Shown here: piece after piece, positions 40,201-49,200 of the stretch
Layout: every line of letters begins with the position of its first letter
Position numbering within the stretch: position 1 is the stretch's first letter
DNA from: Synechococcus sp.
GTDB lineage: Bacteria; Cyanobacteriota; Cyanobacteriia; Thermostichales; PCC-7336
Length of the DNA: 64,000 nucleotides
Assembly: GCA_051439605.1 (NCBI GenBank)
Contig: JBFRWN010000044.1
Span: forward strand, 96,249-160,248
Direction of reading: 5' to 3'
Position numbers: made by a program

Positions 40201-43200
40201 CCTGTTACTGTCCTGTCTCAAAGCGAGGGCAATATGCTGAATCATCCAAAACACCAAGCTTGTCTTTGTGGGAGCAATGCAGAAGTCGTTAAAGCACTGA
40301 CAGAAACAGAGAAAATAGTAATAGGAAGGGCTCTAGACTGCCAGATTATTTTCGACGCTCCCCAGGAGGATGTCAGCGTCTCCAGACACCATGCAGAAGT
40401 GCGCCCTCTGGCCGAGTCAGAGGATTGGGAAATTTGCGACCTCAACAGTGCTAACGGAACCTTCGTTAACGGACAACAATTGCATGGATGTTTAAGATTG
40501 ACTCCGGGCGATCGCCTAACTTTTGGCCAGAGTCCACGGGAATTAGTTTTTGAAGTCCAAACGCTCCCGGCTATAGAGACGGGAACGGAAGTTTCTTCTC
40601 CGGGACAGAAAGGTCCTTTGTCGAGGCCAACAAATCATCACCGTAGTATTCTCTCTCCTGGAAGCTGGTTTCCACCGTTACGATCCCCCATTCAAAGCTC
40701 TGACTCAAAACCACGCTCAAGCTGGCAAGAGCTGTGGGAAAAAGGCAGATTCTCGTCGGTATTTATCTACTTAATACTATGTTTGATCGCAGTTTCGGTA
40801 TCAGATCGAGGCATTTCTAACGCACTTTTTACTGGATGCCTGCTAAGCATAGCCATTGCAACCATTTCTAGATTATGTGGCAAGTATAAGCCTTGGTGGC
40901 TGATCTTAGGATTAGCCTCAATCACTGCGGGTTTAACAGTTGTGGGACATGACTTGTTACCCGATATCCTAGCTGTAAAAAACGGTATATCTATTGTAAG
41001 GCAGTTGATTAAGGCTCCTACAAAAGAGATAATCAAAGCACTACCTGTGCTAAGCATCTATTCTATGGGCAGAATGCTGCCTCGCGCTTTACAGAAGAGA
41101 ATCAGAATTGTCGATCCTCTGGATGGAGTCTTATTAACAATTGCTTCAGCAATTGGGCTCGTAGTTGTTGAAAGTTATCATAAAGATCTTGCTCTCATTA
41201 TTGCTGGAATTTTGCCCAATACTGCCGGGGATTTAGCTTATAGTGGAGTTTTTGGCTACTACATTGGCCTGAGCGCAATGAAGAGTCCTCGTCACCGTTG
41301 GAAAATAATCGGATTTGGTTTTTTGCTGACGTCAGTGCTTCATTTTGTTCTAAATCTCAGATTTTTTCCAGTCGAGATTAGGATTTTGCTATCAATTTTA
41401 GAATATAGTCTGTTGATAACCTGTATTCTTAAAGGAATAGATGAAGCAGAAAAAATGAGAGCATAGATCTGGCTTAAAATTCACGATTGCAGAATCAGGC
41501 AAGCATGCTTTAGATACATTAGCTCGCTTGTAATCAGTTTAGGCTTGATGTTCTCACGCTACTAAGCAGCACTCATTTTGAGAATATTACCGTTTCTTAA
41601 GATGTAAAGAGACATGGATGATTTGCTGAAGAGATTCGGGAACTTCTAAATAGATTGCATTCGCAATCTCTCCGAAAATAGTTGCTAAAGAACCAGGATA
41701 TATCATAATTGACAAGCCATATTTAACAAGACAAGCAGTCAGAGCAAGCTCTTCGATTAAATATTGGCGAGACAATTCTACAAAGTTTTCGAAATTGTCA
41801 GCATTCCGTTCGATGTGCCGAAGTGTAAAGTCATCGGCACAAGCTTTAACTGAAAGGGCAAATCTGCTATCTTGGGCAACTAAATCTTCTATTCGCTTGA
41901 GATTTTTATAATACTCATCTGAATTTTCGATCTCTGAAGCACAGATCGTATCGATATGGCAGGTGTCTGCATGTCGTTCAAAGATGCCGCTTGACTTGTC
42001 TATGAATTCTCTCCCGAGAAGCAGTGCTTTGGTACGTGCTCGCCTTTCGCCAATACCTCTGTGGATTTGCAATGTATATTGATGAATGCTATCAGCAATA
42101 AATACCGTGCATCTCTTGTAATGATTTGCGATCCAATCTACTGTTGCTATCAACCTTGGCATTGAAAATTTTTTGTTTTCTAAACTTACTCCTAAAAAGC
42201 AATGTTCGTTCTGATTAAGCTTTTTCCGAGCAGTATTCGGAATAACATTGCTCACCAGTGCGCGATATCTAGAGCGAGTTAAAAAGGATATTTCCTGTCG
42301 CGGTTTTATCAGCTTTTCGTATTCTCTATACTCCATTCTCAAGAGATGTCGGTAAGACCCTAGATAACAGGAAATTTCTTGATTTTGGAGCAAATCTTGC
42401 GCAAGTATGGTTTCCATCTGATAGATATTTCCGAAGGGGGGGATGGTACCATACTCGCACCCGGGAAATAACTGGCTAGCTTCTTGTCGATCGATCAACC
42501 TAACCTGGGTTGTCCCTAAAGCTTTTTGAAGAGATCCCAAATTAATTGCTAAACTCGCGGGGATCACCACCATAGCTTTGTGATGATGTTCGATTTCTAC
42601 GATTACAGCTTCAATTAGCTCCATTCCTAACATGGATTTATAGTCCGAAAGTTCCTGCTCTGTACAAGCTGGTGAATGTTCGATCGTTATATATTTGATC
42701 TTGTTCTGATTTAAAACATCCTGGACTTTCTGAATCATCATGACCGATAAATTCTATATGTCGTGACAGACTTCTAGTTCTTTTTTGGCTTCGGGATGCG
42801 TGGCTAGATAATCCTTTAGCCAATTGCATCCCTTGTCTATGAGTTCCTCGTAGCTGGCAATTGGCCACAGATAAGCAATTCCATTGGCTGAAGCAGTGAC
42901 TATCTGTTCTCCATCGGGACTGAAGCTGGCGCTATGGACTGCATCGCCTTGATGATCCGTAAAAAGAGGGAATAGTTTGCCCTGCAAGTCCCACTGGCGA
43001 ACGGAGCCATCTGCCGAGCCAGTGAGCAAATGCTTCCCATCGTGACTGAAACTGACGCTATGGACTGCACCTTCGTGGCCAGCGAATTCTTCTTGCAGTT
43101 GATTGGTCTTTAAGTTCCACAGGCGAGCAGTTTTATCCGCCGATCCAGTCAATAGATAGTCTCCTTCAGGACTAAAGCTAACGCTCCAGATCCAGCCTGT

Positions 43201-46200: not shown

Positions 46201-49200
46201 TTGCATCACCTGCACCCGCACGCTCGATTTCCCCATCTGGCGAGAGTTGAACAGGTAGCAGAACTTCCCGGCCCTGACTGTTTCGTAGAGCTCTCGATCC
46301 GCCTGTCGTTCGACGTAGGTGGGATCGTCTGCCAGCAAGCTACCCCCGACATGGTAGTCAACTGAAGGAGGGGAAGGATAAATGGCGGGAAAATTCATCG
46401 TTCTCAAACAAGGGTAGGGAATTGAACGCTGTGTTTGGGAGCAAGGGATGTCTCAGTTCGTCTTGAACCTATTCCCTACGTCCGACTTGCTAGGCGCTCG
46501 CGGAAGTACTGCCGATACAGTTCGGAGCGAGGCGAAACTTCGTTGCCTTCAAAATTGACCAATCCCAGACGATTCAGCTTGAATTCAAATTCGGGCTCTA
46601 AGCAAACAGGCTCAGAAGCCGTGACTACTGTTTGCATTGCTGCCAGCAAATCGGGATGCCTTTTAAGATTTCGAAGATGTCGTCTGAGATGATTTCCATA
46701 GAGTCCTGCATCTGTTGAGGCAGTCTCTAGCAGTTGGTCAAAGTTGAGCCCTTGGCATGCAAGATGGTAAAGGGCAACTCGAATCAGATAAGGATGTCCG
46801 CCAATCACCGCCATCAGGCGATCGACCTGCTCGCTTGTCCAATTGAGTCCGTATCGATGGGCTAAATCCAACACTTGCTCGGGGGTGAATTCAGGTAAAG
46901 AAATTTCGATTCCTACGTTAAAAGGGGAGGAGTTGGTGTCCATCACAACATAGACTTCTGTGGAATAGGCGAGGATTAATCTCACTTTGGACCAGATGCT
47001 ATGTGTTTTAGATTGCTCGTGCCAGTAACGAAGCAGTTTGAGAAAATCTTTAGCGACTCGGTGTTGGTAGAAAAGACTATCAATATCGTCAAGAGCTAAT
47101 ACCAGAGGACCGTCAACTTTTGGAAGCAGACATTCCTCAAAGTATTGCGAACAGTTGACATTGGGACCAAAGAATTCTTCATCCCAATATTCGTTGATTT
47201 TCTTAGGAGAGATACCCAGTTCTCGACTCACTAACGCACAGAAGCGGCGCAGAAGTTGGTTGAGATTCGAACATACGCTCTCTTCAAATTGAGTGAAAGA
47301 CAGTAAAATAGTGCGATAGCCTTGCTTTTGCGCATAGTCAAGAATCCTGACCATTAAAGATGTTTTGCCCATATCGAGGGGGGCTTTTAGCCGAATCAGA
47401 GCTGCTCGCTTGACAATCTCTCGATAGCAGCGGTTTTCAAGCTCCGCTCGCGCGAGGTAAAACGCTGATCCTAAGGCTACGTGCCCTCTGGGATCGTCCT
47501 GACAAAACTCGTTGGGGGATGGAATGGGGAAAACGGTTTCCTCGGCGGAACGAGCGATCGCATCCCGAACAGCTTGTAGAGCTTCAGCCGCAGTCTGGTA
47601 TCGCTGGCGGTAGTCCTGGCGCACCATCTTGTCTAGAATCGCGGCCAGTCCGGGGGAAATGACAGCCCGTTCTTTTAACAGCGCACACCGATATTCCTGC
47701 GTCTCTGGGGTCTGGGGGAAATTATTCGGAGTCAAGCCAGTTAGAGCTTGCAAGCAGACCAGTCCCGCAGCGTACAGATCGCTGCTGTAGTGGGGATTGC
47801 CCATCAATTGCTCCCTCGGTGTATAGCCGGGGGAGCCTATGGGAACAGACCGTTGGGACGCTCCATTACCATTGGTGCCAAGGTTTTGGAGATCTTTGAC
47901 TGCCCCAAAATCGATCAGGACAATTTTGCCATCACTGGCTCGCCGAATGAGATTGCTGGGCTTGATGTCTCGGTGAATGGCGTTCTGGGAGTGGACAAAT
48001 ACCAACACCTGCAAAATATCTTCGAGGAGAGCGATCGCCGCCTGCTGACTGAGTGGCTCTCCTTCTACCAGTTCCCGAGCCAGGGGGTGTCCCCGCACGT
48101 AATCCTCCACGAGATAGAAATTCCCCGATTCCTCAAAGTGAGCTAGAAGTCTCGGAATTTGGTCGTGCTCTCCCAACCGGTAAAGGCTTTTCGCCTCATC
48201 ATCAAATTTGCGCTTCGCCAGATCGAAGACTTTGGGTTCTTTGGGTTTGAGTTTCTTGACAACACAGAAAGGGTTGCCTGGTAAGTGGCGGTCTTTCGCA
48301 ATATACGTTTGCCCAAAGCCCCCTGCGCCTAACTGTTTGACAATTTCGTAACGATTAGCCAGTACTTCAACCATAGAATTCTTACCATTTGTCAAAATCG
48401 CAATATCCTACTTTCACAATGAAGTTTATTTTGATCGTCACCGTCCAAGAAATCTTCGCTCTAAAGTCGGTCTCAAACCCATTCAATTACCAAATTTTGC
48501 ATGGTTTCAGAAGCAAAAACTTCTCGTATAGAATAGGATTGTCCTGCTAAAAACAATAATAAATGATTTGAAATTCAAAAGCTGACTATACATGGATCAT
48601 TACGCAAAGAAAGTTTTCTCCTGGAGGTTTCTTGGACTAAGCAATGTCTTTCGAAGTGTTGAAGTGTCTTCACTCCATCAAAAGAGAGATACCTCTAGTA
48701 TCGCCTAGCCTCTAAGCCGAGCAATTTAAATCATACAAATTGAAATCTTTTAATCTTTGCTCCTACTTATGTCAATCCCCTAATGCGTTGCTGGAACCAA
48801 ATTTTCCCTGTCCAACCAGCCAGGGCTCGTTGGACGATCGAACAACAGCGTTCTAGCGAATCATTTGGCTAAGGCTTCAAACCCTCCCACAATATCGAGC
48901 AGTTCGGCTGTAATCGAATTTTGCCGTTGGCGGTGATATTGAGTTTTCAAATCAGAGAGACGCTCTTCGATATTCTTTTCCGCAGACTGCATCGCAAACA
49001 TGCGACTAGCATTTTCACTGGCTAAAGACGCTGCGAATGCCCGGTACAGACTGACAAAGAAATACTCCCGAATTAACTCGGAGAATAGCTGTCCGCGCTC
49101 CATTGTAAATGTGGGGATGGTTTGGGAATGCCACTCCTGTTCTTGCAAGTGATGCAGCCAGCTCGAATCAATGGGAAACAACTGCAAAGAGGAGGGTTGA

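Follow-up and report, generated by a model that had tools for sequence, protein, structure and literature searches.

Two paralogous STAND-type NTPases as a putative signal relay in a Synechococcus genome

Two neighboring NTPase genes with different ends

Why would two neighboring genes encode related NTPases, one joined to a kinase and the other to a long run of repeats? The window, by which we mean the whole 64,000-nucleotide stretch of Synechococcus sp. contig JBFRWN010000044.1 analyzed here, carries such a pair on its minus strand: a kinase-NTPase gene (46476-48395) and an NTPase-WD40 gene (42754-46398), with 68 nt between the genes. A preliminary description had reported two AAA_35 proteins here, and both open reading frames are indeed present, the first with Pkinase and AAA_35 domains and the second with AAA_35 and WD40. 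We refer to the effector-side type as E and to the sensor-side type as S.

The E-type gene encodes a 639-residue protein without a membrane helix. Its Ser/Thr kinase domain (residues 16 to 274, positions 47574-48350; Pfam PF00069, E value of 2e-33) reads as intact in the Gly loop, catalytic-loop, and DFG motifs. The AAA_35 NTPase that accompanies it (residues 302 to 633, 46497-47492) has an intact Walker A lysine (K344) and a Walker B of D436-D437 without the catalytic Glu; an invariant arginine, R456, and a PFN motif (residues 491 to 493) lie within the predicted S interface. The S-type gene encodes 1,214 residues from an ATG at 46398; a TTG at 46407 is an alternative start that would give 1,217 residues (ORF 42754-46407). 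Its NTPase (about residues 11 to 378, 45265-46368) has a STAND/AAA+ fold with helical and winged-helix parts and contains R53 and K57 in the P-loop, a Walker B of D151-E152, and R172. A K/R-rich charged linker (about residues 430 to 508, 44875-45111), judged by eye to be probably a coiled coil, lies ahead of a predicted single membrane helix (residues 509 to 527, 44818-44874) in the N-in/C-out orientation. The Pfam scan found 14 WD40 repeats (42838-44598; mean, 56% alike), which may form two propellers.

Twelve nucleotides after the S gene, on the same strand, lies a gene for a tRNA-editing domain fused to a cyclodipeptide synthase (41587-42741). We rejected the synthase as part of the system: it occurs in 0 of 100 related loci, and of 301 genomes in the class, 2 have it, one being the host. 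Promoter and terminator scans gave matches at chance level only.

Elsewhere in the host genome, a second pair described on contig C1 was located at 19131-21320 (729 residues) and 21402 to the contig end, which cuts the protein at 1,027 residues; this sensor protein has TPR-like 34-residue repeats visible in its sequence. The third AAA_35 gene that had been listed is at C81:73675-75120. Identities were also close to those first given, at 63% over 342 residues for E and 71% over 383 residues for S (69% over 463) within types and 20 to 24% between E and S. A clade comparison indicates that the host's two pairs arose by duplication with exchanged ends, and no close counterpart of either was found in the two congeneric genomes compared.

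Two NTPase types, each with a conserved arginine

Across genomes, the E and S NTPases split into separate clades (31 E and 46 S sequences), with 16 to 28% identity between clades. Both window domains score far above the curated AAA_35 (PF14516) cutoff of 27 bits (E, 451 bits; S, 105 bits). In STAND NTPases the P-loop core is followed by a helical bundle with a GxP motif and then by a winged helix. Among de-duplicated domains, the P-loop GK is kept in 60/60 E and 89/89 S, Walker B is present though variable in E, and the GxP motif has an invariant G, with P in 59/60 E and 89/89 S. The invariance first claimed for both Walker motifs thus stands for Walker A; for Walker B, said to read DD/DE in both types, it does not, since the third host copy reads NH and the catalytic Glu is found in 88/89 S versus 42/60 E domains. 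The P-loop Arg shows a similar split (88/89 S versus 39/60 E). Because most E domains retain the catalytic Glu, E is not generally dead; from these motif counts, its own site would bind nucleotide yet often be a poor hydrolase. The E arginine (R456 in the window) is invariant in all 60 E domains. The corresponding S arginine (R172) is kept in all 89 S domains, and S retains both faces.

The model of the window S domain aligns over 314 to 318 residues with 2qen (Z score, 20.4) and 2fna (Z score, 20.1). Its fold neighbors are the same set listed earlier for the E domain and include plant NLRs, Avs proteins, and ORC/Cdc6 (Z scores, 14 to 15). We found no solved relative of AAA_35 proteins. Neither window NTPase domain matched an NCBIfam or PADLOC model; PADLOC 2.0, with a library dated 2023, returned 0 families for both.

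Evidence that E and S are partners

In 22 genomes, an S domain lies within 1 kb of 33 of 62 E domains, 25 times in the order E then S on one strand, while 17 of the 62 have no S inside 20 kb. Copy numbers of the two types correlate across these genomes (rho, 0.86, for kin that are not independent). Seen from the other side, E is present in 51 of 80 S-anchored loci, and genomes with an unpaired S encode an E elsewhere in 5 of 5 tested. One E gene can stand ahead of two to four S genes. The E-then-S order with the hydrophobic helix recurs in loci titled Saprospiraceae, Pyrinomonadaceae/Acidobacteriota, Eisenbacteria, and Armatimonadetes. Partners also diverge in step (Mantel r, 0.90; 49 pairs; 0 of 2,000 shuffles as high). 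S and E share one chain in 46 of the 47 top protein clusters, 7 of them with 0 or 1 residue between the domain envelopes; these fusions form one close group and therefore represent few fusion events.

Complex modeling of E with S gave a score of 0.74, versus 0.00 for the best of three controls, against a mark reached by 116 of 157 solved pairs and 2 of 215 mismatched pairs. Runs shared at least 82% of contacts, with a partner pLDDT of at least 87. The modeled interface includes R456 (100%), S490, and N493 of E and G18-G19, Q54, and S58 of S, a contact in which the invariant E arginine would sit at the nucleotide site of S. Interface columns were not above the rest in conservation (p, 0.57 and 0.38), and AlphaFold2 left the halves of a natural S-E fusion undocked (pTM, 0.46, from 41 rows only, all 59 to 86% alike). 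The window E and S proteins are predicted to bind each other, and they probably relay signals by docking.

Two or three S domains share one chain (S-S and S-S-S fusions) in 15 of 134 proteins. Since such fusions exist, one-to-one E-S pairing is not the whole story, and because S also retains its own arginine face, S-S contacts are likely too.

Two points weigh against the evidence for partnership: linkage by itself would also yield mirrored trees, and the passing score of the complex model may reflect likeness to solved AAA+/STAND oligomers such as ORC-Cdc6 and resistosomes.

Inputs of S and outputs of E

Both host sensor proteins have a hydrophobic helix between the NTPase and the repeats, at residues 509 to 527 (KD, 2.18) in the window protein and 488 to 506 (KD, 2.83) in the second. 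An uncharged hydrophobic helix occurs within 200 residues after S in 51 of 71 proteins; as controls, one was seen in 0 of 71 cases inside S, 2 of 58 further along S proteins, and 1 of 66 in E. K/R residues are more numerous on the NTPase side of the helix in 49 of 55 cases, and a periplasmic binding domain follows it in 2 proteins; a hydrophobic helix is absent from 17 of 79 proteins with S at the N terminus. Since S carries this helix, its WD40 or TPR repeats are predicted, from hydropathy alone, to lie outside the cytoplasm. The repeats of the host proteins are highly repetitive (WD40, 56%; TPR, 63% and up to 91%).

Other inputs, counted in 31 hand-picked S proteins, include CHASE2 (6), triple GAF (3), kinase-AAA_16-GAF (2), and a receiver (1), and S can also be the C-terminal part of large sensors. 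GAF partners were considered as light sensors and set aside, the GAF parts of 3 proteins being without a CH motif.

E forms the C-terminal end in 65 of 66 E proteins. Among 49 paired E proteins, the domains ahead of it include TIR (22), CHAT (7), EAD11 (2), caspase (1), and trypsin (1); cyclases and DNA-binding domains (HTH; OmpR-type and LuxR-like) also occur, and none of the 49 has GT4 or HEPN. Glu is kept in 19 of the 22 TIR domains at the position that we take to be catalytic. As a lead only, a short E N terminus matched HTH_VMAP-M9 in an atlas at 0.87. The preliminary description contained neither the membrane helix, nor the CHASE2, periplasmic-binding, GAF, and receiver inputs, nor the Walker B difference between E and S.

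A proposed relay and its alternatives

The core proposal, a pairing of two NTPase types with swapped ends, holds because adjacency, mirrored divergence, natural S-E fusions, and the complex model all point to it. Its framing as a prokaryotic paired sensor/helper NLR is weaker because the sensor repeats are predicted across the membrane, inputs are those of ordinary signaling, outputs include cyclase and DNA-binding domains, and the S-type protein Hat (below) is linked to carbon uptake. The reading that we favor, and hold to be reasonably probable, is a modular signal relay of two paralogous STAND-type NTPases. S would be the transmitter, joined through a coiled coil and a single membrane helix to its input, in this case a double WD40 propeller outside the cytoplasm; E would be the soluble receiver, with a Ser/Thr kinase as its output in the window pair. 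A ligand beyond the membrane would alter the state or clustering of S. ATP-bound S would then dock E, whose invariant arginine face would close the S nucleotide site, as in the modeled contact; hydrolysis by S may need E and so time the lifetime of the complex. Docking would cluster the outputs: the kinase here, a phosphoesterase on C1, and elsewhere TIR, caspase-like protease, cyclase, or DNA-binding domains. Such a module would serve ordinary signaling and, in TIR-bearing copies, perhaps defense.

Paired-NLR-like immunity, in which S would sense an invader or envelope damage and nucleate a ring of both types, the effector on E then killing or arresting the cell, seems to us unlikely. It draws on the TIR, CHAT, EAD11, caspase, and trypsin outputs, the retained TIR Glu, the highly repetitive sensor repeats, the duplicated host pairs, which have swapped ends and lack close counterparts in the two congeneric genomes compared, and the plant NLR and Avs fold neighbors; the Npun2340/2341 family, discussed below, is also placed among counter-invader NTPases in the part of PMC8195603 covered here. 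Against this stand the predicted membrane-spanning sensor, the commonness of CHASE2, periplasmic-binding, GAF, and receiver inputs and of cyclase or HTH outputs, the failure of PADLOC to match either NTPase, the carbon uptake annotation of Hat, and the small genomes with one conserved copy each of S and E, a pattern that resembles housekeeping. Still less probable is that each type forms its own oligomer in a shared pathway with no mixed catalytic site, for example with S rings as a scaffold and E rings answering a second messenger. The two retained faces of S, the multi-S fusions, single E genes ahead of two to four S genes, unlinked or orphan copies (host C81 and genome G041, for example), and the undocked fusion model would suit that arrangement. 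It fits poorly with S-E fusions almost without linker, with a complex model that passes where its controls do not, and with an E arginine invariant while the E Walker B decays, for which action in trans on another site is the best explanation.

A further question concerns priority and not mechanism. The AAA_35 pairs probably belong to what was named in 2004 as the Npun2340/2341 STAND family, and we judge it an even call whether the adjacent pair is that Npun2340/2341 and its partnership was proposed then. The two names are consecutive locus numbers, and the closest solved folds are the archaeal 2qen and 2fna, whose proteins we take to belong to the same clade (MNS). In the part of PMC8195603 covered here, a "Npun2340/2341 family" of the MNS clade is credited to Leipe 2004 and comes up only as one of the NTPases that NTPase-FGS proteins may carry; the main text of PMC7159879 contains neither "MNS" nor "Npun." On the other hand, the literature searched, the Leipe 2004 text aside, gave no account of the pair, the membrane topology, or the Hat link.

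Comparison with known systems

One known system of similar design is the nSTAND2 two-gene system, as outlined in the part of PMC8195603 covered here (Fig. 6C): two adjacent STAND paralogues, both with an arginine finger, are predicted to form a hetero-multimer, and the effector is on an eroded partner. That partner has eroded NTP-binding motifs and is fused to GT4 or HEPN effectors, unlike the E/S pair, in which all 60 E domains keep the Walker A GK, neither effector occurs, and S bears membrane sensors. With NAIP-NLRC4, plant sensor/helper pairs, and Avs, the E/S pair shares the STAND fold, sensing and output on two chains, and TIR and caspase-like outputs. In NAIP-NLRC4 and plant pairs, however, both partners have repeats and are cytosolic, whereas E lacks repeats, S lacks an effector, and the sensor is predicted across the membrane. 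Nor does the pair match a canonical NLR, in which effector, NTPase, and repeats share one chain and one compartment; here they are split over two genes, and hydropathy predicts a helix between NTPase and repeats. ORC/Cdc6, in which one paralogue's arginine serves another's site, are fold neighbors of S, but they are replication initiators without sensor or effector fusions. With two-component systems the likeness lies in the logic alone: one conserved module takes CHASE2, periplasmic-binding, GAF, PAS, and receiver inputs, and its partner bears OmpR-type, LuxR-like, and cyclase outputs. There is no homology, and the link would be an ATPase contact in place of phosphotransfer.

Hat and Sll0877 of Synechocystis PCC 6803

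Slr0143 (P74442/BAA18543.1), annotated as Hat and as controlling high-affinity inorganic-carbon uptake, is S-type. It is colinear with the window S protein (437/1,276 identical, 34%; NTPase, 187/379, 49%), and the two share the order S NTPase, hydrophobic helix (KD, 2.1, in Slr0143), and WD40. They differ in that Hat's repeats are less uniform and in their gene neighbors: the close Synechocystis relative in L055 has no adjacent E gene and precedes a V4R/ferredoxin cluster. To our knowledge, the N-terminal domain of Hat had no known homologue in 2001, and the literature examined describes Hat only as a WD-repeat protein. Sll0877 of the same strain is E-type, unlinked to slr0143, and by predicted pairing the likely partner of Hat. 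What is new here, on sequence grounds, is the recognition of Hat as an S protein and of Sll0877 as an E-type protein in one strain. In the PMC9880817 supplements, P74442 appears in one fraction and is absent from the predicted-interaction table; Sll0877 was sought by locus tag in tables that use UniProt identifiers. The data examined yielded no record of an interaction between Slr0143 and Sll0877.

Under the relay that we favor, the Synechocystis pair would be Hat and Sll0877, which would give Hat a mechanism and a named partner in the main cyanobacterial laboratory strain. More tentatively, and with somewhat less than even confidence, we suggest a widespread unrecognized two-component-like class, with a STAND pair in place of histidine kinase and response regulator, in which any S input could be wired to any E output via a composite ATP site to which E contributes the completing arginine. 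The first member of this class with a phenotype, carbon uptake control, would be Hat-Sll0877, and TIR copies would represent membrane-receptor innate immunity. Should S prove to be the transmitter and E the receiver, many sensor and effector proteins that now stand as orphans would gain a wiring rule. Cyanobacteria commonly carry AAA_35 genes, which occur in 45 of 151 genomes sampled across the phylum with up to at least 13 copies, and S-type proteins are retained in Epithemia endosymbionts.

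Paired AAA_35 NTPases of two types

The window encodes, on the minus strand and separated by 68 nt, a 639-aa kinase-AAA_35 protein (46476-48395) that carries the effector-side NTPase type (E) and a 1,214-aa AAA_35-WD40 protein with 14 repeats (42754-46398) that carries the sensor-side type (S). A tblastn search located five AAA_35-type domains in this genome: the window pair, a second pair on contig C1, and a single gene on contig C81. Identity reached 63% within E and 71% within S and was 20 to 24% between types, in keeping with the preliminary description of a side-by-side AAA_35 pair of two conserved types; the E and S profiles are homologous across 326 columns. 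A tree built from every second de-duplicated domain and the five of this genome placed 31 E and 46 S domains in separate clades. In it, the two paired E domains of this genome group as sisters, and so do its two S domains (support of 1.0 for both), which argues that duplication copied the whole pair at once and that its ends changed afterwards.

The AlphaFold2 model of the S domain (pLDDT of 93.5) most closely matched the archaeal STAND-like ATPases 2qen (Z of 20.4, root mean square deviation of 4.1, 314 residues aligned) and 2fna (Z of 20.1), followed by plant NLRs (Z of 16.7 and 15.9) and ORC/Cdc6 (Z of about 15). Among solved structures, a sequence search with the domains returned no relative, only a RecA P-loop match.

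Sampling of 151 genomes across the phylum yielded AAA_35 in 45; none of 14 control genomes contained it. In 22 of these 45, mostly near-complete assemblies, we assigned domains to E or S: S lay within 1 kb of 33 of the 62 E domains and within 20 kb of another 12, and 17 E domains had no S that near. Chance adjacency is estimated at well under 1% per gene, given about three S domains per genome of several megabases. The 33 close cases comprised 25 with E before S, 4 with S before E (including 3 fusions), 3 divergent, and 1 convergent. From the S side, 80 loci anchored on S were taken from named genomes, and 51 of them contain E; among the 29 without it, E was found elsewhere in all five genomes tested. 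A natural S-E fusion used as the query retrieved 47 clusters at E values of ≤1e-230, with both types in one chain in 46, and these clusters form one close group. Partner distances of E and S mirror each other (r = 0.90) over 49 pairs (the window pair and 48 others, after removal of 7 near-duplicates from the 55 found), a correlation that linkage alone can produce. The pairing is real and widespread. In two loci, one E gene is followed by an array of S genes (four in L084:986-17896 and two in L100:2461-10924).

Membrane topology and partner domains

Both S proteins of this genome contain a hydrophobic helix, downstream of a basic stretch, that separates the NTPase from the repeats, a predicted membrane segment that the preliminary description overlooked. 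Among 110 S open reading frames (ORFs) in 100 loci, with redundancy kept, such a helix is predicted within 200 residues after S in 55 and later in 7; 17 have none, 6 are cut short, 22 have S at or near the C terminus, and 3 are fusions. Lys/Arg residues are in excess on the NTPase side in 49 of the 55. In a controlled count, 51 of 71 had such a helix after S; as controls, the 71 S domains themselves contained none, stretches further on contained one in 2 of 58 cases, and E domains in 1 of 66.

In 31 S proteins handpicked to favor unusual cases, partner parts were WD40 (8), CHASE2 (6), triple GAF (3), periplasmic binding protein (2), kinase-AAA_16-GAF (2), and single examples of GAF, receiver, GUN4, and TRADD-like domains, with no family in 6. 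S thus occupies the usual place of a histidine kinase or cyclase. Several loci (L026 to L033, L041, L082, and others) encode proteins of about 2,000 aa that end in an S domain, at a place usually held by a histidine kinase; the two that were scanned have kinase-AAA_16-GAF, and in several cases a convergent E gene lies opposite. In other proteins (P0007, P0013, P0017, P0019, P0022, P0031, P0042, P0052 to P0054, P0101, and P0107), a full S domain is followed by one to five repeated pieces of about 165 residues, which match part of the S profile and are perhaps repeated docking modules.

The N termini of 49 E proteins (all but one drawn from the 55 paired ones; classes overlap) were TIR (22), CHAT (7), cyclase (5), OmpR-type helix-turn-helix (HTH) (4), other HTH (4), EAD11 (2), caspase (1), trypsin (1), or none (17); none of the 49 had a kinase.

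The third E gene of this genome, on C81, has an orthologue (73%) in a congeneric genome. An S-CHASE2 gene faces this orthologue from about 6 kb away, with a CHAT-DUF928 cluster in between, and the order recurs in a second congener together with an ShlB gene. Here, an ShlB-like gene appears to continue on contig C93, amid other genes, and no third S was found in this genome, so the partner was lost or not assembled.

Mechanism and alternative explanations

Motif counts, on domains de-duplicated at 90%, differed between types: the Walker B Glu was present in 88 of 89 S versus 42 of 60 E domains and a P-loop Arg in 88 of 89 versus 39 of 60. Neither residue is present in any of the three E domains of this genome. 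The helix following Walker B contains an Arg that is invariant in E and S. With ATP and Mg included, a complex model of the window E and S domains reached a score of 0.74, against 0.00 for the best of three controls. This is above a mark that 116 of 157 solved pairs and 2 of 215 mismatched pairs attain and that applies only roughly to E-S. Model runs shared at least 82% of contacts, with partner pLDDT of at least 87, and placed the Arg helix and PFN loop of E upon the N-terminal GG, P-loop, and lid of S. The model fits S as the hydrolyzing subunit and E as the arginine lender. The contact may have been learned from solved AAA+ oligomers; the modeled interface revealed no extra conservation.

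We consider a general two-ATPase relay the probable function of the module, in which a ligand at S would be the trigger, E and S would pass through an ATP cycle, and kinase outputs would become clustered. That E and S instead form separate oligomers seems improbable. Against the modeled contact stand the Arg face that S itself retains, the two or three S domains carried by 15 of 134 proteins, and a natural S-E fusion whose halves were modeled undocked (pTM of 0.46). In reality, E and S may assemble as a mixed ring, or S may polymerize and recruit E. Immunity of the paired-NLR kind is unlikely to be the main role. The pair is better described as a STAND signaling variant than as a member of the paired-NLR class. 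Some members may well serve defense, since the presumed catalytic Glu is kept in 19 of 22 TIR copies.

The family name of Leipe 2004, Npun2340/2341, suggests that the adjacency had already been seen in 2004; the MNS/Npun names are absent from PMC7159879. Literature searches found no description of the pair, of its topology, or of the link to Hat described below; they did not extend to the source-data files of two eLife papers, which may list such neighborhoods.

Relatives in Synechocystis

Slr0143 (Hat) of strain PCC 6803 was reached by way of an S protein, itself unpaired, from a Synechocystis metagenome-assembled genome (MAG) (locus L055). Slr0143 is colinear with the window S protein (437 of 1,276 positions identical, 49% in the NTPase) and has the same helix. 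The window S gene is a relative of Hat and not necessarily its orthologue. Work from 2001 reportedly located Hat in thylakoids and described a 20-residue hydrophobic linker and an N-terminal domain for which no homologues were known. PMC2491639 lists slr0143 as Hat, with control over a system for high-affinity inorganic carbon transport, a role that PMC4057619 also gives to Hat with Hisbergues 2001 as the source. An enrichment table in a paper on a ribosome-associated small protein lists Slr0143 among ribosomal proteins (PMC13640635), an unexpected entry for a predicted membrane receptor. A single E match was found in the MAG. A relative of this match, at 74% in the N-terminal part, falls into one cluster with Sll0877 of PCC 6803, an E protein that is 39 to 43% identical to this genome's E domains and has DN at Walker B; the only paper found to name sll0877 (PMC8875361) lists it as SigD dependent in high light. 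S-type WD40 proteins (P0096 and P0099) are retained in cyanobacterial endosymbionts of Epithemia diatoms.

Neighboring genes

Directly after the S gene lies a fusion of a tRNA-editing domain and a cyclodipeptide synthase (41587-42741, minus strand). A second synthase (C93:3571-4416) adjoins genes judged by eye to resemble TIR, SIR2-like, and NTPase-WD40 genes; among 301 genomes of the class, the enzyme was found in just 2, and both copies here adjoin STAND-type loci. Convergent with the window synthase is a fusion of an FHA domain and a PrsW-family membrane protease (40234-41466, plus strand), a possible reader of the pair's kinase; the gene is absent from 100 related loci. On the other side, second-type ATP synthase genes named by eye as gamma, alpha, b, c, and a, plus a small membrane gene (48861-53455, minus strand), form a cluster that lacks beta and epsilon; genes resembling those for beta, epsilon, and AtpQ occur on contig C69, separated by other genes. 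Short ORFs resembling gene fragments, by eye an AAA lid piece (38976-39578, minus strand) and an oxidoreductase-like tail (36591-36944, plus strand), are also present.
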